DNA from: Deltaproteobacteria bacterium
GTDB lineage: Bacteria > Desulfobacterota > GWC2-55-46 > UBA9637
Assembly: GCA_016195725.1 (NCBI GenBank)
Contig: JACPZB010000066.1
Coordinates: forward strand, 1 to 60,271
Direction of reading: 5' to 3'
Length of the DNA: 60,271 nt
Shown here piece by piece: positions 26,379 to 57,813 of the stretch; position 1 is the first letter of the stretch; every line of letters begins with the position of its first letter. A program made the position numbers and the translations under genes. The notes under the pieces are model-generated. The model ran no database searches, was not told the origin of the DNA, and worked only from the letters and a program-made list of their open reading frames with translations.

Positions 26379-27094
26379 GAGATAACGCCGGCCCCACGTT
26401 TATGTGTTTTTAATCCAGACAAACCTGAAATTTACACAATCTACTTTATACCATCAGGGCCTTCTTCTGTATTCTGAATGCTGACTCATGGATTCCATTA
26501 TTTCCACCCCTTTTATTAGCTGCAGGTTCATGGGTGTTTCTTTCCATTCCTCTAAGTACGACTTCCTCGAAAGATGTTTATTTTATAATCACCGATGGTC
26601 AAAAATCAGGCAGCTTTTTCGATGAGCAACATATTTTCAGTGTAATATGTTGATTTTTTACTGATAGTGAACGATGGCATTAAATTTGCATTGTTTTATG
26701 TTGGAAATTACTTGATTCACTTTTGAGAGTTGCAGACCGGTTGCGAGTCAAGACATAAACATTTTTGGGAATTTTTTCTTTGTCCGGGACCGGCCTTGCG
26801 ATGTTAGCAAGCATGGGATTGTTTTGCTGTTGTTTGTAAAGGGACAACAGCACCTATAGTCAGCGACATAAATTTGTAGTCTGCCGATCCCGTTTAAATA
26901 CATAACGGGACAAATTTATCGGTGATTTTAAAATACGTCCATAAATGGGCACACTATATCTACTTATTTTTATCGTTCACTATAAAGGGCAGTGCAACAA
27001 AATTTAGATCGTTTGCCCTTGCTCCACTCTTTTCACTACAGCAGATATGGCGAGGGTGATGGGGTAAAATGTAACGATTGTTTTTTCGTCTGTA

Positions 27095-27130
27095 TTAACC
27101 CAAAAAATGCATTTGCATTTTTTGGCAAAA
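27095..27130. repeat. 36-nt hairpin element, copy 1 (TTAACCCAAAAAATGC-ATTT-GCATTTTTTGGCAAAA)
   Basis: 11-bp perfect stem CCAAAAAATGC/GCATTTTTTGG with a 4-nt loop. It is near-identical to 31037-31072. Confidence 0.85.
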
Positions 27131-27215
27131 GGTGATTAGTCCAGTACGACGGTTACAACGCAGTAATCGTGAAAGTGTTTGAATAAGGTAATGACGCCTT
27201 ATTCCCTATAACGCG

Positions 27216-27235
27216 GAAAATGCGGATGCATTTTC
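27216..27235. promoter_or_regulatory. Palindrome GAAAATGC-GGAT-GCATTTTC, a candidate operator
   Basis: 8-bp perfect inverted repeat sharing the AAAATGC/GCATTTT core with the hairpin element. It lies about 215 nt upstream of the HAO-like gene. Confidence 0.4.
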
Positions 27236-27448
27236 TGACAAATGCAAGTCACTGACAGATATCTCTCGGACATCTTTTGAGAGCGCTTATGTCAGGAAGC
27301 TACTCAGAAGCAGGCTTCTGCTCTGATCTTGCTTTTGCCCCGAAAAATATTAATTCGGGTTTAAAGGGAATGGGCGTTTTTTTTTGCCGACATACTGTCT
27401 GTGTGAAGAGGTTTTTTCATATTGATGTTGTGTATAGAAAGGAGTTGT

Positions 27449-28777
27449 ATGAAGAAGAATTTTACGTACGCGCTTATCTTTTTGCTCTTATGCGCTGTTT
27501 ACTCCAGCAGTTTTGCCGCGGATGAAGGGCTGCCGCTTCCACTGAAGAGTTATCATAAAAGGAATACGTCTGTTACCGAGAAGTGGAAGGAGGCGGGGAG
27601 GGGGTACTTCAATCCATACGAGTATAAACCTCCCAAGGTTGAGGGAGCCGGTACTGACTGCTTAAAGTGCCACAAGGTTTTGACTCCTACGGTGGTAAAG
27701 GACTGGGAGGACAGCAAGCATTTCAAGAAAGACGTGGGCTGCACGAATTGTCATAACGACCATTCAAACCTCATCATGCCGACTCCTGATACTTGCGGAA
27801 AGTGCCATGCCGCGAGGACAATGCAGCACAGGGGAGGGAAACATGGTGTAGGCTGGAAAAATGTAATTGCGGCTGGAGGCAAAGGGGGCGCGGCAGGCCG
27901 ATACCTTGCCCAGTATTCCGAGATGCAGGAAGGCGGCTGTGGGACATGTCACAGCATTGAGACTAAATGCGATTCATGCCATACAAGACACGCCTTCAAA
28001 CCGAAAGAGGCGAGGGAGCCCGATGCGTGCGGCACATGTCACATGGGTCCCGACCATGCCCAAATTGAGTATTACGAATCCTCAAAACACGGTGTCATCT
28101 TTAAGGTTGAAGGCAAAGGTTTTGAAGACGGCGGCAGGGCGCCGACATGTGTGACATGCCACATGTCCGGAGGCAATCATGATGTGAGCCAGGGCATTTC
28201 CATAGGCGGGGCATCTCAAGGCAAATTCATCGGCCAGACAAACAGCGGGAACAGTCAGAGAAAAAACCCCAACGGGATATCGATGAATGAGATTACAGGC
28301 GAGGATTTCACGCGGGAGAGGGACAAGATGCTGCGTGTTTGCATTAACTGCCACTCAAAGAGATTTGCGGAGCATAAGCTTTCAATCGCGGACGGTGTAA
28401 AAATAGCGAGTGATGCCGTTGCCGGCGAGGCTATAAAGGAGATTGTTGACCTCTATAACTCAGGGCTTCTTAACCCGATGCCGGATGACCGGCCTGAGAA
28501 CCCATTCGCTGGTTTTAACTTAGTGCTTACATCGCACCAGCTTTATGAGCAGACATCCGGCATAGAGGCGTTGTACTTTGAGATGTACAAGTTTGACCTT
28601 GTGCATGCATGGAAGGGCGCTTATCACTTCAGTCCTGACTGGACACACTGGTTCGGCAACGCGCCGATGAAATTGAAACTGGCAAGGATAAAAGACATGG
28701 CAAACCAGTTAAGACGCCTTAATAAATTGGAGCTCAAACTCAACGTCAAACCGGAAAAGGTTGAGTTCGGAGAATAG
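27449..28777 (+). CDS. Octahaem cytochrome c of the hydroxylamine oxidoreductase (HAO) family, probably without the cross-link tyrosine
   Basis: Signal peptide MKKNFTYALIFLLLCAVYSSSFA follows a GGAG site. There are 8 CXXCH motifs. Collinear blocks resemble Nitrosomonas HAO (YKPP; MPTPDTCGKCH; CGTCHSIETKCDSCHTRHAF..REPDACGTCHMGPDH..YESSKHG; APTCVTCHM; CINCHSKRFA). Confidence 0.85.
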   Translation: MKKNFTYALIFLLLCAVYSSSFAADEGLPLPLKSYHKRNTSVTEKWKEAGRGYFNPYEYKPPKVEGAGTDCLKCHKVLTPTVVKDWEDSKHFKKDVGCTNCHNDHSNLIMPTPDTCGKCHAARTMQHRGGKHGVGWKNVIAAGGKGGAAGRYLAQYSEMQEGGCGTCHSIETKCDSCHTRHAFKPKEAREPDACGTCHMGPDHAQIEYYESSKHGVIFKVEGKGFEDGGRAPTCVTCHMSGGNHDVSQGISIGGASQGKFIGQTNSGNSQRKNPNGISMNEITGEDFTRERDKMLRVCINCHSKRFAEHKLSIADGVKIASDAVAGEAIKEIVDLYNSGLLNPMPDDRPENPFAGFNLVLTSHQLYEQTSGIEALYFEMYKFDLVHAWKGAYHFSPDWTHWFGNAPMKLKLARIKDMANQLRRLNKLELKLNVKPEKVEFGE

Positions 28778-28782
28778 CGGCG

Positions 28783-29406
28783 ATGAGACATTTATTGCCA
28801 TTCATGATTATATTGATAACGCTCTCATCCGCGGGGGCGGCTGTGCTGCCGCGCGCCGGCGCATGCGGAAGCTGTCATGTTGATAACTTCCGTGAATGGG
28901 AATCTTCCGCGCATTCACGCTCAATACTGGGGGAGCGATTTCGCAAAGCGCTGAAAGAGCATCTCCTCAGGGATGGCACGGACGAGGGTAGTTTTTGTTT
29001 CAGATGCCATGCGCCTGAGTTGATTATCTCCGGGGATGTCTTTGAAGCTACGAAGATGGCGCTGAACGGGAAGGCGCCGGCCGAAGGGGTTACATGCGTT
29101 GCCTGCCACAGTGTGGAATCCGTTAAAGGGGGGAAGCCTGTATACGACCCAGGCGATTTTCCCGGCTATCACAGGGTGAAAGACCTGAGGTCTCTTGACA
29201 GGGCCGGGCTCTGCACGACCTGCCACAGCGTTTATAAGCAGAAGAATATTGTCAGGGAAGAGAAGAGCGGTTTTTTAATGCGCAATGTTTCATGGGTCAC
29301 GGAATTATTCCACGCAAGAAGAAGCAAGAAGAGCGACCACGGTTTTTCTGACACCATTATTGTGGAAAAGGAAGGGGAAGGATGTCCGGGCGTCAAGAGA
29401 GATTAA
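28783..29406 (+). CDS. Membrane-anchored or secreted tetrahaem cytochrome c (NapC/NrfH- or c554-like)
   Basis: N-terminal hydrophobic helix and 4 CXXCH motifs (CGSCH, CFRCH, CVACH, CTTCH). The first motif context, CGSCHVDNFREWESSAHS, resembles NrfH/c554-type haem 1. Confidence 0.75.
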   Translation: MRHLLPFMIILITLSSAGAAVLPRAGACGSCHVDNFREWESSAHSRSILGERFRKALKEHLLRDGTDEGSFCFRCHAPELIISGDVFEATKMALNGKAPAEGVTCVACHSVESVKGGKPVYDPGDFPGYHRVKDLRSLDRAGLCTTCHSVYKQKNIVREEKSGFLMRNVSWVTELFHARRSKKSDHGFSDTIIVEKEGEGCPGVKRD

Positions 29407-31040
29407 ATATTATCTTATTGCGTGGACTATCAGCGTTAGGGGCATTTCTTTTACTGATATCAGCCGCTATGGCTCGGTCCGGCAATTTCAGTGAGGGAGA
29501 AGGGAGCAGGGAGTGCAGGAACTGCCATCAGGAAAATAAGAGACCGGACAGATATGATGCCGTCAGACCCTGGCTCAAGAGCCGGCATGCCGAGGCAGGT
29601 GTTGCGTGTGTCGACTGTCATCTTAAAAAAGAGATAGAGAAAGAGGATTTTTATAAGGCCGTTACCGCAACGACGAAGGAGAGCGCCCACGCCTTTATGG
29701 TGGAGAGGCCGGCCGCGAAAGAGACAAAGATGTATTTTGTCGGCGTATGCGGCGGGTGCCACAAAGAAAGGCTTGACGAGTTCAATGCGAGTGTGCACGG
29801 CATGGCAAATCAGAAAGGGAAAAGCGTAAGCTGTATTGACTGTCACGATCCGCATAGTGTCTCTGCGGCATCCAGCAGGGATTCACGGCTGTACAAGGGG
29901 AATGACCTGAAAACCTGCGGGAGATGCCACAAGGATATGCTGGACTCATACATGAGCACATTTCACGGCAAACAGTTTGTCCTCGGCAATACCCTTGTGC
30001 CGACATGCGTATACTGTCACATGGGGCATGAATTGCCGCCGGATGCGCCGGGATCGGCCATCAATGCTAAGAATGTAGGCAATATCTGCGCGGGCTGCCA
30101 CGGCGAGGCAGTCGCGCTGGGACCGGATGCGGACGAGATGATGATACACTCTCTCAGCAGGGATTCTACAAGAAAGGTCATCCACTTCAGGGACCCTGTC
30201 TCGTTCGGGCCGTTCTCCATCGCCTCTGTAATAAACTCATCGTATATCGCGATGATCATAGGGGTCGTAGGTTTCTTTACCCTTATGTCAACCCGTGACT
30301 TTGTAAAAAAGACAAGGATGGCGCATACCCACAAACATGATAACGGCAGCGAAGAAAAGACGATAAAGCGTTTTTCTCTCGCATGGAGGTTTCAGCACTT
30401 TTTCTGGGCAATCTCATTTATCGTTCTTGCTGCAACAGGCCTGTCCCTCAAGTTTCCGGATTCGATATTCTCGAGGGCTATCGTGTGGGTTGCAGGAGGA
30501 CCCGCGATGAGGTCTGTTGTCCACCGCATCGCAGCGGTTGTTTTTATAGGAACGGCGCTGGCGCATCTGAGCCCGTATATTTTGTTCCGCAGGCTGCCTG
30601 GAAAGGTCATTCTTGCAAAAAAAGATTTCCTCGACGCACTGCTGCATCTCAGCTACTTGTTCGACAGAACCGAAAATATGCCGCTCATGGGGAGATATAC
30701 GTGGTATCAGAAGCTGGAATATTGGGCCACGGTTGTGGGCGCCTGCATAGTCATATCAACCGGTTTCCTTATGTGGGGCTTTGCCCCCCTGATCAAGAAG
30801 ATACCCATTTCGCTCTTATATTACGCGCAGATGATGCATGGGTGGGAGGCCATACTCGCGGTTCTCGTTATCTTTGTGCAGCATATATATCAGACTGTTT
30901 TAAACCCGCTTGTTTTCCCGATGGATTTCTCATGGCTTACCGGAAGGACGAAATACGCGGTGATGGAACATGAACATCCCCTTGAGTTGATGGAGATTGA
31001 GTCTAAGAAGGGAGGCGGAGATCGTGAAGGCGCATCTTAA
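29382..31040 (+). CDS. Fusion of a periplasmic heptahaem cytochrome c domain with a FdnI/HydC-type dihaem cytochrome b membrane domain (CbcL-like)
   Basis: 7 CXXCH motifs in residues 45-240, then about 5 TM helices. Conserved His sit in TM segments (RFQHFFW; HRIAAVVF; MHGWEAILAVLVIFVQH), as in formate dehydrogenase gamma or NiFe-hydrogenase cytochrome b. Confidence 0.75.
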   Translation: MSGRQERLNIILLRGLSALGAFLLLISAAMARSGNFSEGEGSRECRNCHQENKRPDRYDAVRPWLKSRHAEAGVACVDCHLKKEIEKEDFYKAVTATTKESAHAFMVERPAAKETKMYFVGVCGGCHKERLDEFNASVHGMANQKGKSVSCIDCHDPHSVSAASSRDSRLYKGNDLKTCGRCHKDMLDSYMSTFHGKQFVLGNTLVPTCVYCHMGHELPPDAPGSAINAKNVGNICAGCHGEAVALGPDADEMMIHSLSRDSTRKVIHFRDPVSFGPFSIASVINSSYIAMIIGVVGFFTLMSTRDFVKKTRMAHTHKHDNGSEEKTIKRFSLAWRFQHFFWAISFIVLAATGLSLKFPDSIFSRAIVWVAGGPAMRSVVHRIAAVVFIGTALAHLSPYILFRRLPGKVILAKKDFLDALLHLSYLFDRTENMPLMGRYTWYQKLEYWATVVGACIVISTGFLMWGFAPLIKKIPISLLYYAQMMHGWEAILAVLVIFVQHIYQTVLNPLVFPMDFSWLTGRTKYAVMEHEHPLELMEIESKKGGGDREGAS

Positions 31041-31572
31041 CCCAAAAAATGCGGTTGCATTTTTTGGCAAAACAGTGCTGATAATCGCGGCGATTCTATT
31101 GACATTGCCTGTTCATACATGGAGCGATTCCTGCGACGAGTGCCATCTTCACAGGTCGCTTGTCAGGGAATCTGACGGGGAATCTGTAACAGATGCGGAC
31201 GCGCCGGGAACGCTTGCCGGATTCCATATTATGGAATTCAAAGGCGAGGAACGGACATCGGCATGCCGCAGGTGTCATGGAAATTTGCAGGAGTCCAATA
31301 AACTTCCGCGTTCGGAGGCATGCCTCAAGTGCCATACGAGGGGCAAGGCAGCGCAGGGGGATCGGCGCATGGTATTCCATGCGGAAAAGAATCACTGGCC
31401 TCTGGAAAAGGTGTCGTGCGCTGACTGTCACAGGGCGCACATAAAGGGCAACCCTGCCGTAAAGTTTCTTACGACAAATGTGGTCAGCGTATGCAGCGGA
31501 TGCCATGAAAAAACTTTTAATTTGAAAGAAACTGCGTTGAAGGAGAGCGCTTTGCCTGATTCAGGCCAGTAG
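31024..31572 (+). CDS. Pentahaem cytochrome c
   Basis: 5 CXXCH motifs (CDECH, CRRCH, CLKCH, CADCH, CSGCH). The GTG at 31024 lies 8 nt after GGAGG, and the alternative GTG at 31075 lies after the hairpin element. Hydrophobic signal LIIAAILLTLPVHTWS. Confidence 0.7.
   Translation: MKAHLNPKNAVAFFGKTVLIIAAILLTLPVHTWSDSCDECHLHRSLVRESDGESVTDADAPGTLAGFHIMEFKGEERTSACRRCHGNLQESNKLPRSEACLKCHTRGKAAQGDRRMVFHAEKNHWPLEKVSCADCHRAHIKGNPAVKFLTTNVVSVCSGCHEKTFNLKETALKESALPDSGQ
31037..31072. repeat. 36-nt hairpin element, copy 2 (TTAACCCAAAAAATGC-GGTT-GCATTTTTTGGCAAAA)
   Basis: 34 of 36 nt are identical to copy 1, and both differences are in the loop. It starts at the stop codon of the preceding gene. Confidence 0.85.
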
Positions 31573-31595
31573 ATTAATAAAGGAGGCTAACTGTA

Positions 31596-32909
31596 ATGTC
31601 TTCAATTGAGCAGATAGGGGAAATCAGGGTTGCAATCGATACCGTATGGGTAATACTCTCGGCCGTTCTTGTTTTCGTAATGAACGCCGGTTTTGGAATG
31701 CTTGAGTCGGGCCTGTGCAGGTCAAAAAATACCGTGAATATATTTTCAAAGAACATAGTCATCTTTGCCATAGCAGGCCTTACTTTCTGGCTTGTCGGAT
31801 TCGGCCTCATGTTCAGCGATGGCTCGTTTTTCATCGGCTCGACAGGATGGATGCTCACGGGTGAGGATAACAGTCCCGCCGTGGCCGGGCAGTATTCCGG
31901 TATTTTCAGCTCGCTGGGCTGGACTGCCGTTCCCCTCTACGCAAAGTTTCTTTTCCAGATGGTATTTGTAGCCGCCTCGGCGCACATTGTGTCCGGCGCG
32001 GTGTCAGAGAGGATAAAGTATTTTTCATTTATTGCCTTTTCCGTTGTGCTGGTCGCCATCATCTATCCCATAACAGGTCACTGGATATGGGGCGGAGGAT
32101 GGCTGGATTCGATGGGTTTTGTTGATTTCGCCGGCTCCACGGTGGTCCATTCGGTAGGAGGATGGGCAGCGCTTACCGGCACGATCGTGCTTGGCCCGCG
32201 TATGAACAAGTTTACCAGGGACGGGAGAATAAACCCCATTCCCGGCCATAACCAGACAATGGCTGCGCTTGGTATGTTTCTGCTCTGGCTCGGATGGTTC
32301 GGTTTCAACGCCGGAAGTGCAATGGCCGCAAAACCGGAGACGATAGCGCTGGTTGCCGTCAATACCACACTGGCGGCCGCAGCCGGCGTTTTAAGCGCGA
32401 CAATCGTATCAGAGATACTCATAGGCAAACCGGACCTGAGCATGATGGTTAATGGCGCGCTTGCCGGCCTTGTCGCAATTACTGCCGGCTGTTCAGCGGT
32501 AAACATAGGCGGCGCTGTGATAACAGGCCTTGTGGCCGGCATACTTGTGGTCTACTTCATAATATTCCTTGACAGGCGCAGGATAGACGACCCTGTAGGG
32601 GCAATACCCGTGCATCTGATAAACGGCATCTGGGGCACTGCGGCCGTGGGGCTGCTTGACCGGGAGGCGGGGCTCTTCTATGGAGGCGGCATATCGCTTT
32701 TTATTACGCAGCTTATCGGGATTGCGGCTGTCGGCGTTTTTGTCGGCGGAGGCACGTATGTTCTCTGGCGCCTTATCGGTCTTGTTATGGGACTGCGGGT
32801 AAGCCAGGAAGAAGAGTATGTCGGACTCGACATAAGCGAGCACGGCATGGAGGCATATCCTGATGCATCCGGACCCAGGGGTTTATACGGAAAACCGGGA
32901 AAGTTCTAA
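31596..32909 (+). CDS. amt: Ammonium transporter (Amt family)
   Basis: 437-aa ORF with about 11 TM helices. It has AGFGMLESGLCRSKN, FAGSTVVHSVGGWAAL and WGTAAVGL signatures. AGGAGG precedes the ATG, 23 nt after the pentahaem gene. Confidence 0.9.
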   Translation: MSSIEQIGEIRVAIDTVWVILSAVLVFVMNAGFGMLESGLCRSKNTVNIFSKNIVIFAIAGLTFWLVGFGLMFSDGSFFIGSTGWMLTGEDNSPAVAGQYSGIFSSLGWTAVPLYAKFLFQMVFVAASAHIVSGAVSERIKYFSFIAFSVVLVAIIYPITGHWIWGGGWLDSMGFVDFAGSTVVHSVGGWAALTGTIVLGPRMNKFTRDGRINPIPGHNQTMAALGMFLLWLGWFGFNAGSAMAAKPETIALVAVNTTLAAAAGVLSATIVSEILIGKPDLSMMVNGALAGLVAITAGCSAVNIGGAVITGLVAGILVVYFIIFLDRRRIDDPVGAIPVHLINGIWGTAAVGLLDREAGLFYGGGISLFITQLIGIAAVGVFVGGGTYVLWRLIGLVMGLRVSQEEEYVGLDISEHGMEAYPDASGPRGLYGKPGKF

Positions 32910-32930
32910 CCGCGGCGGGAGGCGGAAAGC

Positions 32931-32957
32931 GGGGACAGATTTGAAATCTGTCCCCAA
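32931..32957 (+). repeat. 27-nt hairpin repeat, copy 1 (GGGGACAGATTTGAAATCTGTCCCCAA)
   Basis: 10-bp perfect stem with no T-tract, between amt and the next gene. The second copy at 35155-35181 has 3 mismatches. Confidence 0.7.
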
Positions 32958-32972
32958 CTATCGGAGGACGAA

Positions 32973-33650
32973 ATGGCCTGGCTAATATTCTTTGTTTTTT
33001 GGATTGTCTTTCTCTGGCTCTATAAATACAGCGAGCGGCACAAGCAGCACAGGATTCTGGAGATGCAGAAGGACAGGCATTCGGACTACGGCCAGATGAA
33101 AAAAGAGTTCGACGAGAGCATGGAGCTTTTCAATACCACTGCTGATTTCAAAGCCAGGCTTGCGCATATTGATAAGGCCATAGAATGTCTTAAGTGGATG
33201 GAAGAGATGATCCCCGGCAAAGAACATTCCTCTGAAAAGCTTCCGCAGATAATGTCGCTCAAGCAGGCGCTGATATATTCCGGCATAAAGGCGCAGTTCG
33301 AAAACGCAATGAATAACGCGAAAGAGGGAAAGCTCCTCGTGGCAAAGGTCAATCATGCAACCGCCGCTCAATCCATCCTCAACAAAGGGCTGAGCCTCGG
33401 CATTGACAGAAAGACCCTTGCGAGGGAGATTGAAGAGGCCAACAGTTTTATCAACAGGATTCAATACGATGAATACTTTTCAAAGGCAAAAAAAGAAGAG
33501 GAAAAAGGGAATATAAAGACAGCCATAGATCAGTATCAGGTGGCGCTTTACTTTTTAAAAATGACCAGCATGGGGGGCGAAGACCATGAATCGCTGGTAA
33601 AAGAGATGGAAGGGAGGATACAGAAACTTTATGAAAGAGGCATTGTTTAA
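32973..33650 (+). CDS. Hypothetical membrane-anchored helical protein
   Basis: 225-aa ORF with an N-terminal TM helix (WLIFFVFWIVFLWLY); the rest is predicted helical. GGAGG precedes the ATG. Confidence 0.55.
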   Translation: MAWLIFFVFWIVFLWLYKYSERHKQHRILEMQKDRHSDYGQMKKEFDESMELFNTTADFKARLAHIDKAIECLKWMEEMIPGKEHSSEKLPQIMSLKQALIYSGIKAQFENAMNNAKEGKLLVAKVNHATAAQSILNKGLSLGIDRKTLAREIEEANSFINRIQYDEYFSKAKKEEEKGNIKTAIDQYQVALYFLKMTSMGGEDHESLVKEMEGRIQKLYERGIV

Positions 33651-33670
33651 AGCGATCACAGGAGGTAATT

Positions 33671-35113
33671 ATGGAAACATCTGACATGCAGGAAAGGATG
33701 AAAGGTTTCGGGGAGGCCATAAAAAAAACGGAATTTCCGTGGAAGGCAGTCCTGTTTGTTTTGATTACAGGGTTTATTGTCGTAGGCGGCCTGTTCGGTC
33801 TCCTGGAAATCAATGAGGCCGGCTACATTACGGTCAAGCAGTCCCTGTTGACAGGCAAGGTTACAATCGTTTCAGAGCCAGGTATGTTCTGTCAGTGTTT
33901 CGGAACGATAACAAAATACAGGGAGGCGGGAACCTTCAAATTCGCTCAGACCGAAGAAGCAGCCGGAGGCAAGGAAAAGGCGAGGCCTAAAAAGGGCAGG
34001 GGGAGCGACCCGGAGGTATCCGATGAGATAGAGGTGCGATTCAACGATGGTTCCATTGGGTGGATATCCGGAATGGCGCTTTTCGATCTTCCCAAGGATG
34101 ATGAAAAACTCGGGCTTCTCCATATGAAATTCAGAGGCTTCAGGAATCTCATTGAGGCCGGAATAATGCCCACTATTAAAGAGTCGGTTGTGCTCACGGC
34201 CGCGCTCATGAGCTCCGGAGAGTCATATACGACAAAAAGGGCCATATTCTCGGAGTGGTCAAGGGATCAGATTGAGAAGGGCACATATATGACCGAGGAA
34301 TTGGTAAAAGAGGAAAAGGACCAGAGGACCGGAGATGTTACCAGAAAGAGCTTTGTCAAGATAAAGACCGATAACAGCAGGCTCCTGAGAAATGAAAACC
34401 CCCTTGAGAGGTACGGCATAAAGTTCAGACAGTTCCAGGTAACGGAGATCCGCTATGAGCCTGAGACGGAAAATCTTATAAAGACAAAAATGGAGGCGAT
34501 GCAGAAAACCATCGCAGCCAAGATTTCCGCAGAGAGGGCAATACAGGAAAGGCTTGCGGCAGAAGAGCTCGGCAAAAAGAACGTTACAGTCGCCGAATAT
34601 GAGGCCATGATAAAGAAGAAGAAATCTGAGGTCGAGGCAGAAGAGGCAAAGGCAGTGGCCGTCATTGAGGCGAATAAGAAACTTGAGGTGGGAAAACTGG
34701 AGAGGGAAAAGGAGACCAATGCCGCCTCAAAAAAAGTTGAGATTGAAAAACTTGAGAAGGCCAGGGCGGTTATAGAGGCGCAGAAGGCGCTTGACGTGGC
34801 GAGAATAAACGCACAGAGCGCTGAAAGCAAGAAAAGGGCGGACGTCCTCGAAGGGGAAGGGCTTGCTGAAAAGAAAAAGCTTATTTACAAAGCCGATGGA
34901 GCGTTACAGCAGAAACTTGATGCTTATGTCAATGTTATGACAGTTCTCGCAAAGGAGCTTGGCAAACAGAAGTGGGTGCCTGATATCACCATGAACGGCG
35001 GGCCGCATGGAACCGCGGACGGGAACGCGGCAATGGGCTTTATGAATCTGTGGATGATGAAGACCGCCAAAGAGCTTGGAGTTGAACTGGTGAATGAGAA
35101 AAAGAATCAGTAA
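33671..35113 (+). CDS. Membrane-anchored SPFH/flotillin-like protein with long coiled coil (tentative)
   Basis: 480-aa ORF with an N-terminal TM helix, then a band-7-like beta region (GYITVKQSLLTGKVTIVSEPGMF) and an A/E/K-rich coiled coil of about 150 aa. Confidence 0.45.
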   Translation: METSDMQERMKGFGEAIKKTEFPWKAVLFVLITGFIVVGGLFGLLEINEAGYITVKQSLLTGKVTIVSEPGMFCQCFGTITKYREAGTFKFAQTEEAAGGKEKARPKKGRGSDPEVSDEIEVRFNDGSIGWISGMALFDLPKDDEKLGLLHMKFRGFRNLIEAGIMPTIKESVVLTAALMSSGESYTTKRAIFSEWSRDQIEKGTYMTEELVKEEKDQRTGDVTRKSFVKIKTDNSRLLRNENPLERYGIKFRQFQVTEIRYEPETENLIKTKMEAMQKTIAAKISAERAIQERLAAEELGKKNVTVAEYEAMIKKKKSEVEAEEAKAVAVIEANKKLEVGKLEREKETNAASKKVEIEKLEKARAVIEAQKALDVARINAQSAESKKRADVLEGEGLAEKKKLIYKADGALQQKLDAYVNVMTVLAKELGKQKWVPDITMNGGPHGTADGNAAMGFMNLWMMKTAKELGVELVNEKKNQ

Positions 35114-35148
35114 CCGGGATAGAATGCTCGCGTTGAGTATCGTGGACA

Positions 35149-35198
35149 GAAATTGGGGACAGATTTCAAATCCATCCCCAATTTCTTTTTGATTTTTT
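35149..35198 (+). terminator. Intrinsic terminator after the SPFH-like gene
   Basis: GAAATTGGGGA-15 nt-TCCCCAATTTC followed by TTTTTGATTTTTT. It embeds copy 2 of the 27-nt repeat. Confidence 0.75.
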
Positions 35199-35211
35199 AC
35201 GGTTTTTACTT

Positions 35212-35330
35212 CTATCTAACCTTCACCCTCACGCCATCCTTTATCGAATCATCGGGGTGGGCTATGACAAACTTGCTTTCACTGAGCCCTGAAATAATCT
35301 CTCCAGTTTTTTCTTGTCTTTGGCCTGCCT
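35212..35330 (-). pseudogene. 3'-terminal remnant of an RND/ABC efflux periplasmic adaptor (HlyD/MFP family) gene
   Basis: The minus-strand frame reads ...GQRQEKTGEIISGLSESKFVIAHPDDSIKDGVRVKVR*, a typical MFP C-terminus. There is no start codon and no upstream body. Confidence 0.55.
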
Positions 35331-35386
35331 GTGTGCCTGTCTGTGCGTTGCACGCAGACAGGCTCAAATCCTGCGTTTGCCCCAAA

Positions 35387-35428
35387 AAATAAAAACTAAG
35401 TGCATTTTTTGGGTTAGATGAAAATATT
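35387..35428. repeat. Hairpin element, copy 3, inverted orientation with a longer loop (TTTGCCCCAAAAAAT-13 nt-ATTTTTTGGGTTAG)
   Basis: The flanks match the reverse complement of copies 1 and 2 (TTTTGCCAAAAAATGC...GCATTTTTTGGGTTAA). A 10-bp stem is retained. Confidence 0.65.
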
Positions 35429-35529
35429 TACCATGAAGGATAAAAAAGAGACAATAAAGCATGAAAAATATTTTTAGACCATGCTCTTATTTTCACCAAC
35501 AACTATACAGGGCAGTATGATGGCTGGGA

Positions 35530-57303: not shown

Positions 57304-57813
57304 TTACTTTACGTTTACTGAACCCATATTGGCTTCGTTGCCTTTGCCGATTGCAATGTTTGCTGAGCCCTTAACATCTGACTTGTTGATAATTGCGCCT
57401 TTAACCTTTGAGCTCTTGATGTTTACTGAACCCATATTGGCTTTGTTGCCTTCACCAATTGCAATGTTTGCTGAGCCCTTTACATCTGACTGATTGATAA
57501 CTGCGCCTTTAACATCAGAACCCTTGATGCCTACTGACCCCATGTTAGCTTCATTGCCTTTGCCGATTGCAATGTTTGCTGAGCCCTTAACATCTGACTT
57601 ATTGATAACTGCGCCTTTAACCTTTGAGCCCTCGATGCCTACTGCTCCCACATTGGCTTTATTGCCTTCGCCGATTGCAATGTTTGCTGAGCCCTTAACA
57701 TCTGACTTGTTGATTACTGCGCCTTTGATGTCTGACCCTGCAAAGGCCATTGCTGCTGTCAAAAACACACCCATACATCCCATAGCTATAATTTTTTTAA
57801 ACATTGGTAACAC
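57304..57813 (-). CDS. Secreted repeat protein; the mature part is exactly four 36-aa repeats (candidate beta-solenoid or functional-amyloid subunit)
   Basis: 25-aa signal peptide ending AFA, then 4 copies of GS(D/K)VKGAVINKSDVKGSANIAIG(E/K)GN(K/E)AN(M/V)GSV(G/N)I(K/E). GGAGG precedes the ATG. Confidence 0.8.
   Translation of the reverse strand: MLPMFKKIIAMGCMGVFLTAAMAFAGSDIKGAVINKSDVKGSANIAIGEGNKANVGAVGIEGSKVKGAVINKSDVKGSANIAIGKGNEANMGSVGIKGSDVKGAVINQSDVKGSANIAIGEGNKANMGSVNIKSSKVKGAIINKSDVKGSANIAIGKGNEANMGSVNVK
57313..57744. repeat. Four tandem 108-bp repeats (coding)
   Basis: Units start at 57313, 57421, 57529 and 57637. High nucleotide identity was read directly. Confidence 0.9.

Follow-up and report, generated by a model that had tools for sequence, protein, structure and literature searches.

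The palindromic hairpins found around an HAO-like cytochrome/ammonium-transporter (Amt) operon are ordinary mobile-DNA debris, and neither sites of a regulator nor borders of a transferred block. The stretch analysed, referred to below as the window, comprises the 60,271 nucleotides of a deltaproteobacterial contig, and the hairpin that recurs in it is very probably the left terminal structure of a 185-bp MITE family that has spread in uncultured groundwater Deltaproteobacteria/Thermodesulfobacteriota. All copies in the window matched the profile of this element (nhmmer, E 7e-13 to 4e-04) and all are fragments (Table 1). With the family-A profile, four relics were found within 8.3 kb around this one operon and none in the remaining 52 kb; all four are oriented as the operon, and the window contains no intact element.

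Table 1. Element relics in the window and the inserted segments that hold them.
Feature	Coordinates	Strand	Description	nhmmer match
Copy 1	27095..27131	+	Solo left-end (LE) hairpin, TTAA before	Family-A model 1-33, E 1.4e-06
Copy 2	31037..31072	+	LE hairpin within coding sequence	Model 1-31, E 1.8e-06
Copy 3	35303..35413	+	Right-end (RE) half of family-A element	Model 114-185, E 7e-13
Copy 4	27208..27365	+	Degenerate, internally diverged whole element; LE 27212-27261, RE 27315-27362	Model 6-50, E 7e-05, and 129-164, E 4e-04
Segment of ~142 nt around copy 1	27004..27145	+	Missing from the homologous L005 upstream region (window-L005 alignment)	
Segment of ~318 nt with copy 3	35201..35518	+	From operon terminator to stop of convergent PP-loop gene; missing in L001	

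Structure of the hairpin copies

Copies 1 (27095-27130) and 2 (31037-31072) have the sequence TTAACCCAAAAAATGC-ATTT/GGTT-GCATTTTTTGGCAAAA and are identical at 34/36 bases. As the original prediction had stated, both hairpins are real and the stem is kept, the sole differences being two loop bases; each copy is a perfect 11-4-11 palindrome, and folding gave the same 11-bp stem of -13.1 kcal/mol for the two. The 26-nt palindrome CCAAAAAATGC-N4-GCATTTTTTGG occurs twice in the window compared with 0.00 expected (100 shuffles, up to 3 mismatches allowed). The flanks of the copies (TAAC...CAAA) are asymmetric and common to the copies, and beyond them lies non-palindromic MITE sequence. Exact cores of the form AAAATGC-N4-GCATTTT were found three times, all in the operon region and none elsewhere in the 60 kb, and two of them lie 113 nt apart within the 1070-nt upstream region. 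Only three copies had been counted originally and a fourth, weaker one was overlooked; its hairpin part (27208-27243) shows 72% identity, with the exact core intact.

Copy 3 had been described as the same unit in reverse orientation at 35387-35428. The hairpin exists and has the longer loop that was reported (13 nt, closed by a 10-bp stem, CCCAAAAAAT/ATTTTTTGGG), but it extends from about 35375 to 35417 and corresponds to the right terminus of the element family, opposite to that of copies 1 and 2, with a likeness that runs over 111 nt (35303-35413). The exact 15-mer TAACCCAAAAAATGC is present in it on the minus strand (35402-35416), the copy itself lies in operon orientation with TTAG directly after it, and a 39-nt palindromic insert is nested at 35323-35361. 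In pairwise alignment, one metagenome element (L076) resembled copy 3 in having a similar nested hairpin and TTAG after it.

A family of 185-nt elements in metagenomes

The metagenome scan for the 36-mer gave at least 120 loci, the element being present in at least 24 datasets, and showed that a 185-nt non-coding element, which occurs in many different gene contexts, has the 36-mer as its left end. Among the matches listed, a 32-36-mer is nearly identical in about 60 loci, including the flanks TTAACCC...GGCAAAC, and in these loci one side of the hairpin is locus-specific while the other runs into one of two conserved bodies. The two families so defined, A and B, are each exactly 185 nt long from the CCC to the GGG end and have the LE hairpin alone in common; the mean pairwise identity within family A is 90%. 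Copy 1 is confined to the first 33 nt of the element, and its identity to the LE of many of the metagenome copies is 97% over 35 nt.

The terminal sequence of the family is CCCAAAAAATGC..., and a full element consists of a 4-5 bp target duplication and the LE hairpin CCC-AAAAAATGC-AGTT-GCATTTTTT-GG on the left, an imperfect foldback GGCAAACGCAA...TTGCGTTTGCC in the centre, and the RE hairpin CCCCGAAAAAT...ATTTTTCGGG followed by the duplication on the right. The LE and the reverse-complemented RE align over about 50 nt as imperfect terminal inverted repeats (TIRs), the alignment being interrupted by two short gaps in family A and similar in family B, and the family-A consensus is predicted to fold as hairpin-foldback-hairpin (z = -9.1; -44.2 kcal/mol for DNA). 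An exact 4-bp direct repeat was found in 11/19 unique family-A loci; seven of these 11 repeats are non-palindromic (TAAA, TTAT, ATAA, TTTA, TCTA) and the repeats are therefore direct, not inverted. For family B, five of the 10 loci have an exact 5-bp repeat. Some element copies are without matching duplications, which may be due to decay, recombination between copies or chimeric assembly.

Host genes flanking the elements are unrelated between loci (dozens of contigs), and family A is multi-copy within a single dataset, with copies in five Ga0209642 contigs that each have a different context. Rarity of the motif had been set beforehand as a test of the original prediction, and the motif turned out to be a common multi-copy repeat in related genomes. 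Thus small size without a transposase gene, TIRs, direct target duplications, varied contexts, a stable fold and the empty sites described below are all found for this element, and size, TIRs, target duplications, foldback and truncated copies are defining features of MITEs (PMC3184786, PMC10969869). No match was obtained in Rfam for the window or four full-element loci (elsewhere only tRNAs and a cobalamin riboswitch were reported), and a literature search for the element sequence found nothing. A CRISPR repeat was rejected on the basis of the single match per locus.

All identified hosts are uncultured Deltaproteobacteria/Thermodesulfobacteriota: family A adjoins DnaB of Deltaproteobacteria bacterium RIFCSPLOWO2_02_44_9 and family B adjoins S12/S7 of Deltaproteobacteria bacterium CG07_land_8_20_14_0_80_38_7. 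The biotin carboxylase encoded in the window has its nearest homologues in Deltaproteobacteria/Thermodesulfobacteriota MAGs, and a 91% relative comes from metagenome Ga0209324, which is also the source of the MITE loci L024 and L030. The biotin carboxylase loci of the relatives (L131-L135) themselves gave only a weak family-B-like match, in L132/L133.

With room for at most 61 codons the element is too small to encode a transposase. The ORFs near all matches were clustered, and an LE together with a matching duplication was sought at a distance of 0.3-4 kb; neither a transposase gene nor an autonomous insertion sequence with the element ends turned up in the at least 120 loci listed, and no autonomous element was found in viral contigs (scan) or plasmids (BLAST). 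The search for an LE plus duplication yielded two candidates, one an aldehyde dehydrogenase and the other a PAS sensor, and both were discarded. Mobilisation by the transposase of a putative parent family is inferred: supplied in trans, this enzyme would recognise the TIRs of about 50 nt, cut at the CCC/GGG ends and insert the element at A/T-rich TTAA-like sites with a staggered cut of 4-5 bp. The relics in the window represent two solo LE hairpins, one decayed whole element and one RE half.

Empty sites in relatives

Sites without the element were found in relatives for copy 2 (see below), for copies 1 and 4, and for copy 3. The upstream region of L005 is without copies 1 and 4, though otherwise homologous to that of the window. 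The other 91 nt of the segment around copy 1 have no match elsewhere. According to folding, copy 4 occupies the loop of a terminator-like hairpin (arms 27193-27207 / 27366-27378, then a T-run), and in L005 a 20-nt remnant alone is present at this site, in the same hairpin loop but in flipped orientation. Downstream of the genes, the real operon terminator (35155-35200) is a GGGGACAG...CCCC hairpin with a T-run and is conserved in L001 as well. There, GGGACTATTTT, the stop region of the orthologous PP-loop gene, follows about 15 nt or less after the terminator hairpin; in the window the two are about 318 nt apart. The roughly 207 nt beside copy 3 that are also missing from relatives gave no match to anything, and no further likeness was found among the inserted segments of copies 1, 3 and 4.

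Copy 2 lies in frame in the pentahaem cytochrome gene

Translation placed copy 2 at codons 5-16 (LNPKNAVAFFGK) of the signal peptide of the pentahaem cytochrome. The caveat of the original prediction that this copy might be coding in the 5' region of the gene was correct, and the pentahaem homologues P0006-P0009 are without the 10 residues contributed by copy 2. The empty site in L130 has CATCTTAAT joined directly to ATTGCA, and the indel is exactly 30 nt. The upstream cytochrome gene (29382-31040) has the TAA within the TTAA of copy 2 as its stop codon. Copy 2 is inserted after this TTAA, within the start of the overlapping pentahaem gene, and persists in frame, lengthening the N-terminal region of the signal peptide by 30 nt (10 residues). 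A full family-A element with its duplication has 189 nt (63 codons) and is stop-free in the copy 2-type frame.

The palindrome of copy 2 is perfect in the window and has 2-3 stem mismatches in the sister clade, a difference that could hint at selection on the hairpin. Gene conversion as a source of the perfect copy is superfluous, because L005, L001 and L002 form one clade (91-93% mutual identity, 75-78% to the window) and the mismatches that they share can be decay in a single lineage. A sigma-54 promoter at TGGCAAAACAGTGCT after copy 2 was also considered, for which the spacing fits but the -12 element is missing in the other copies; this reading was dropped when the MITE homology became clear.

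Alternative explanations

The original prediction held that copies 1 and 3 are the borders of the 8.3-kb cytochrome/Amt block and possibly the terminal repeats of a mobilised unit. The kind of sequence was recognised correctly, but the unit is the 185-bp MITE and not the block. The enclosed genes are indeed richer in G+C (46-55% versus 40-45% around them), but the hairpins are not at synteny breakpoints, and because copies 1, 3 and 4 are missing from relatives (L005; L001) that have the operon in the same flanking synteny, the copies are not the borders of a transferred block. Relatives carrying the genes but no element at the borders had been named beforehand as a second finding that would speak against the original prediction. 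It is therefore very unlikely that copy 1 (LE) and copy 3 (RE) form the ends of a composite unit which moves the operon now or did so once, even if the LE type is on the left and the RE type on the right in an orientation fitting one element, the outer flanks TTAA / TTAG match at 3/4 positions, homologues of the operon occur in Gammaproteobacteria MAGs and there is a precedent in IMU, in which a MITE-like pair mobilises an integron (PMC3184786). The copy 1 segment is bordered left and right by upstream sequence that L005 has in common with the window, and both neighbours of the copy 3 segment, the terminator on one side and the downstream PP-loop gene on the other, are present in L001. Given that this synteny outside both copies is present in relatives lacking them, the operon was presumably in place before the insertions. 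In addition, the outer 4-mers do not match exactly, synteny is not lost beyond the ends, and copies 2 and 4 lie inside, so that a composite unit as a past event is largely refuted. Co-option of the relics after insertion is unlikely; the hairpins could act as control points at the RNA or DNA level, or the ends at 27095 (LE) and 35413 (RE) could allow the transposase of the family to mobilise the operon as a single unit. Points of control in such a case would be the perfect 11-bp hairpin at the pentahaem/Amt start and the hairpins of the 5' leader. If true, the co-opted hairpins would tune expression within the HAO-cytochrome-Amt operon, and a mobilisable operon would help to explain its spread between Delta- and Gammaproteobacteria. 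The relics are probably neutral in function at present.

Coordination of the operon by a shared regulator, be it a transcription factor at operator sites or a factor that binds RNA hairpins, would agree with the arrangement of the copies (a pair upstream of the operon, one ahead of the pentahaem/Amt genes and one further downstream), with the confinement of the three exact cores to the operon region and the close spacing of two of them, and with the stability of the hairpins, the palindrome of copy 2 being perfect in the window lineage only. No such site is present upstream of the orthologous operons in L005, L007 and L008, which leaves the operator option of the original prediction unsupported and applies equally to an NsrR/Rrf2-like or any other operator. 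The asymmetric flanks and the MITE extension indicate shared ancestry and not convergence on a binding motif, unrelated genes lie beside this 36-mer in dozens of contigs, and simple promoter and terminator scans called none of the copies, so that an intrinsic terminator was rejected as well; a regulatory origin is highly improbable. Short intergenic hairpin repeats with solo copies are also typical of REP/REPIN palindromes moved by a RAYT (an IS200/IS605-like tyrosine transposase) via single-stranded hairpins, and truncated MITEs can resemble REPs (PMC10969869). The present element differs from these in the direct 4-5 bp duplications and long TIRs of its full copies and in its stem, which is A/T-rich and not G+C-rich, and no RAYT-like or recurrent gene was found near any copy among the matches listed. 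REP/RAYT and IS200/IS605 transposition is not known to yield target duplications or terminal inverted repeats, and an origin of this type is extremely unlikely. Finally, the original prediction had offered as an alternative that the copies are left over from a duplication of the 5' end of the pentahaem gene, given that peptides resembling the N-terminus encoded by copy 2 can be read from copies 1 and 3. This likeness follows trivially from the shared palindrome (the MITE consensus in that frame reads PKNAVAFFGK), and in the alignment copies 1 and 2 are similar over exactly 36 nt and no further, so that the start codon, the ribosome-binding site and the next signal-peptide codons are excluded, which reduces this possibility to practically nil.

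Relation to known elements

As MITE fragments, the copies can be compared with several known systems. The Correia, ERIC, Nezha and Chunjie (Geobacter uraniireducens) MITEs are, like the element, small and transposase-free, with TIRs, direct duplications and a foldback, and bacterial MITEs likewise have many intergenic copies, of which many are truncated and resemble simple palindromes. Chunjie has 21-bp TIRs and 9-bp duplications (PMC3184786), unlike the element with its TIRs of about 50 nt, a hairpin at each end and 4-5 bp duplications. In IMU, the MITE-like pair has a 5-bp duplication (PMC3184786) and, as in the window, LE-type and RE-type ends flank a gene block in the right orientation; unlike in IMU, the ends in the window are fragments of separate insertions with differing outer 4-mers, and the block was not delivered by them. 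The in-frame position of copy 2 is reminiscent of the Rickettsia palindromic elements (RPE), which are also found as palindromic fragments in frame in protein-coding genes, and in-frame MITE insertions in genes have been described (PMC10969869). Unlike RPE, copy 2 has retained only 30 nt, which lie not in a folded domain but near the N-terminus of a signal peptide, a region that is tolerant, and it is a single case rather than a genome-wide habit.

Insertion sequences of the IS1380 family have ends that begin with CC, and those of the IS5 group make 4-bp duplications at YTAR-like sites. Insertion sequences of the IS1380/IS5 types share duplications of 4-5 bp with the element, and a 5-bp repeat has been described for IS1247 of the IS1380 family (PMC3281130). 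We regard an IS1380 or IS5-type parent as a lead and not as an assignment. A MITE family with at least two 185-bp sub-families that have one common terminal hairpin is apparently undescribed.

These findings remove a tempting misreading, in which the hairpins are operators or island borders of the HAO-like cytochrome/ammonium-transporter operon, and for annotators they indicate that solo MITE ends can mimic regulatory palindromes. The element family is a useful marker of lineage and of assembly chimeras, and copy 2 provides a clean example of a MITE fragment that has been fixed in frame within a signal peptide.

Hairpin copies and the repeat family

The two forward hairpins of the original prediction, copy 1 (27095-27130) and copy 2 (31037-31072), both read TTAACCCAAAAAATGC-NNNN-GCATTTTTTGGCAAAA and differ at two loop bases and nowhere else. 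This 11-4-11 palindrome was found 2 times in the window compared with 0.00 expected from shuffles (even with three mismatches allowed), and the folding energy of each copy is -13.1 kcal/mol. The third predicted piece, copy 3, is genuine as well, since the exact 15-mer TAACCCAAAAAATGC is present on the minus strand at 35402-35416; its stem has 10 bp around a 13-nt loop. A weaker fourth copy, with an unchanged AAAATGC-N4-GCATTTT core, was overlooked in the original prediction; it is at 27208-27243, a distance of 113 nt downstream from copy 1. Simple scans called no terminator or promoter on the copies, and the genuine operon terminator is a GGGGACAG...CCCC hairpin with a T-run at 35155-35200, which is kept in the relative L001.

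A metagenome scan with the pattern CMRAAAATGC-N4-GCATYTTTTG gave at least 120 matches, and the full asymmetric 32-36-mer TTAACCCAAAAAATGCAGTTGCATTTTTTGGCAAAC was present in about 60 loci among the matches listed. In the aligned matches the left flank is different at every locus and the right side runs into one of two conserved bodies, each closed 185 nt on by a second hairpin, beyond which the sequence is again locus-specific. Host genes without relation to each other flank the loci, with no recurrent gene family beside the repeat among the matches listed. Families A and B, the two sub-families, are both exactly 185 nt long, and what they have in common is confined to the hairpin of the left end and the outermost right-end bases; the mean pairwise identity of family A is 90%, and its profile was built from 15 distinct copies. 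Identical 4-nt sequences were found on both sides in 11/19 unique family A loci and identical 5-nt sequences in 5/10 unique family B loci. Given that 7/11 of the family A duplications are non-palindromic (TAAA, TTAT, ATAA, TTTA, TCTA), these are direct duplications outside the inverted repeat. About 50 nt of the left end can be aligned with the reverse-complemented right end, and the consensus folds into a terminal hairpin, a long central foldback and a terminal hairpin (-44 kcal/mol, z = -9). Target duplications, terminal inverted repeats and fold are defining features of MITEs (PMC3184786, PMC10969869). The element is an apparently undescribed family of this well-known kind, with no match in Rfam, plasmids or the searchable literature.

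Neither an autonomous element nor a transposase was found among the matches listed, in viral contigs or in plasmids. The IS1380 type, known for 5-bp duplications (PMC3281130), is only a lead to the parent family.

Copies were found in at least 16 metagenome datasets for family A and at least 8 for family B, and the dataset Ga0209642 alone has five contigs with family A copies in different contexts. Based on adjoining marker genes, the host of family A is a relative of Deltaproteobacteria bacterium RIFCSPLOWO2_02_44_9 and that of family B is Deltaproteobacteria bacterium CG07_land_8_20_14_0_80_38_7. The window and the element hosts are of one broad group: the biotin carboxylase of the window is nearest to those of Deltaproteobacteria/Thermodesulfobacteriota MAGs, and its 91%-identical relative comes from metagenome Ga0209324, also the source of two MITE loci (L024 and L030). 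Two contig pairs (L022/L121 and L025/L111) have a family B MITE with one flank in common and the other different, the mark of copies that have recombined or of contigs wrongly joined (chimeric assembly) at the repeat.

Element fragments around the operon

All four window sites were matched by the family A profile. At copies 1 and 2 a left end stands alone, whereas copy 4 is a whole element in decay (27208-27365) and copy 3, oriented like the operon, corresponds to an element's right half. Copy 3 had been predicted to be inverted relative to copy 1; the opposite orientation is indeed seen, but it is simply that of a right end against a left end, because the element is built with its two ends as inverted repeats of one another. 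Within copy 3 there is a nested 39-nt palindrome at 35323-35361 (CCTGCCTGTG...CAGACAGG), of a kind also nested in other MITE copies (L076 and L112) and present elsewhere as well (L117), suggesting one more small palindrome that is mobile.

Operon genes and matches of the family A profile in the window
Feature	Position	Strand	Profile positions	E
HAO-family octahaem cytochrome gene	27449-28777	plus
Multihaem cytochrome gene	28783-29406	plus
Multihaem/cytochrome b fusion gene	29382-31040	plus
Pentahaem cytochrome gene	31024-31572	plus
Amt ammonium transporter gene	31596-32909	plus
Gene for 225-residue protein	32973-33650	plus
SPFH/Band-7 protein gene	33671-35113	plus
Copy 1	27099-27131		1-33	1.4e-06
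Copy 2	31041-31071		1-31	1.8e-06
Copy 3	35303-35413		114-185	7e-13
Copy 4, left part	27217-27261		6-50	7e-05
Copy 4, right part	27315-27350		129-164	4e-04

Empty sites in relatives and other readings of the hairpins

The operon is kept in the relatives L001, L002, L004 and L005 and in the gammaproteobacterial MAGs L006-L008. In L005 the leader is homologous to that of the window up to the copy 1 segment and again beyond it, but lacks the 142 nt holding copy 1, and the copy 4 site has only a 20-nt remnant within the same terminator-like hairpin. In L001 the orthologous convergent PP-loop gene has its stop almost directly behind the same operon terminator; the window has about 318 nt between the two, and this extra DNA contains copy 3. 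For copy 2, locus L130 (pentahaem homologue P0006) reads CATCTTAAT|ATTGCA and the window CATCTTAAC-[30 nt]-ACAGTG, an exact in-frame indel directly after TTAA, and the homologues P0006-P0009 are without the ten copy 2 residues. Neither the 91 nt next to copy 1 nor the approximately 207 nt next to copy 3 gave a match in a similarity search.

The terminator-like hairpin before the HAO gene (27193-27207/27366-27390, with a T-run) is strong, lies about 60 nt upstream of the start codon and is also present in L005 (112-178). Its loop is enlarged to 158 nt by the MITE in the window, and the remnants in the two loops have opposite orientations, which looks like a small hairpin-loop inversion.

It had been proposed that copies 1 and 3 are the borders of a mobilised 8.3-kb block. 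Their orientation, with a left end at the left and a right end at the right, is suggestive, and an IMU (an integron mobilised by a pair of MITE-like elements) is a precedent; however, synteny runs past both ends of the block in relatives without the copies, and the outer 4-mers are unequal (TTAA vs TTAG). The alternative of duplicated 5' gene ends fails given that the similarity between copies 1 and 2 stops at 36 nt. Operator sites are very unlikely, as the orthologous operons compared (L005, L007 and L008) have no such palindrome upstream and the copies have asymmetric, non-palindromic MITE sequence in common, and so was a REP/RAYT system (an extragenic palindrome with its cognate transposase), based on the target duplications and terminal inverted repeats of the element.

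Other repeats

A second repeated palindrome, GGGGACAGATTT(G/C)AAATCTGTCCCC, is located after the Amt gene (32925-32957) and again behind the final gene of the operon (35149-35185), where a T-run follows it. It is found at the same places in relatives (L001 7412, L002 2490) and in unrelated contexts of MITE-bearing contigs (L034, L056, L070, L088 and L099), and looks like a REP-like element working as terminator. The 40-53-nt sequence ...ATCGGTGATTTTAAAATACGTCCATAAATGGGCA... at 26913-26966 recurs with 85-87% identity at L024 7036-7085, nested inside a MITE copy, and at L105 4183-4221; these genomes thus have one more family of short repeats. The intergenic segment 1295-1610, about 315 nt bounded by an inverted-repeat pair of about 70-90 nt (97% complementarity over 33 nt), is MITE-like, with no match among the loci compared. 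Three tandem 108-nt units, 86-87% identical, are present at 57307-57738 inside a minus-strand ORF (57304-57813). At L123 8984-9015 a 28-nt hairpin-only form, TTAA|CCCAAAAAATGCAGTTGCATTTTTTGGG|TTAA, has nothing but the two element ends with a TTAA repeat around them; recombination between the left- and right-end arms may have produced it as a minimal derivative.

Copy 2 within the pentahaem gene

As had been suspected, copy 2 is coding: in the pentahaem signal peptide it accounts for codons 5-16 (LNPKNAVAFFGK), and the TAA within its TTAA serves the gene upstream as stop codon. A full element would have been inserted in frame at this site and afterwards trimmed to 30 nt, an origin that is plausible given that a family A element plus duplication spans 189 nt (63 codons) and is stop-free in the reading frame of copy 2. 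Sequences of the sister clade (L005, L001 and L002) show 2-3 mismatches in the copy 2 stem. These common changes can be the decay of one lineage, since the pentahaem proteins of the three have 91-93% identity among themselves and only 75-78% with that of the window. Neither gene conversion nor selection need be invoked for the perfect copy 2, although, with so few sequences compared, selection on the hairpin may also have acted.

The seven-gene operon is conserved (window 27449-35113; L001, L004, L005 and L008) and common to Deltaproteobacteria MAGs and Chromatiales/Acidiferrobacteraceae MAGs at 60-75% identity. Around it lie the four relics, with none in the other 52 kb; across the window as a whole the element is debris only, plus one in-frame exaptation. 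The Amt gene inside an HAO/cytochrome operon of non-nitrifiers may merit separate study.
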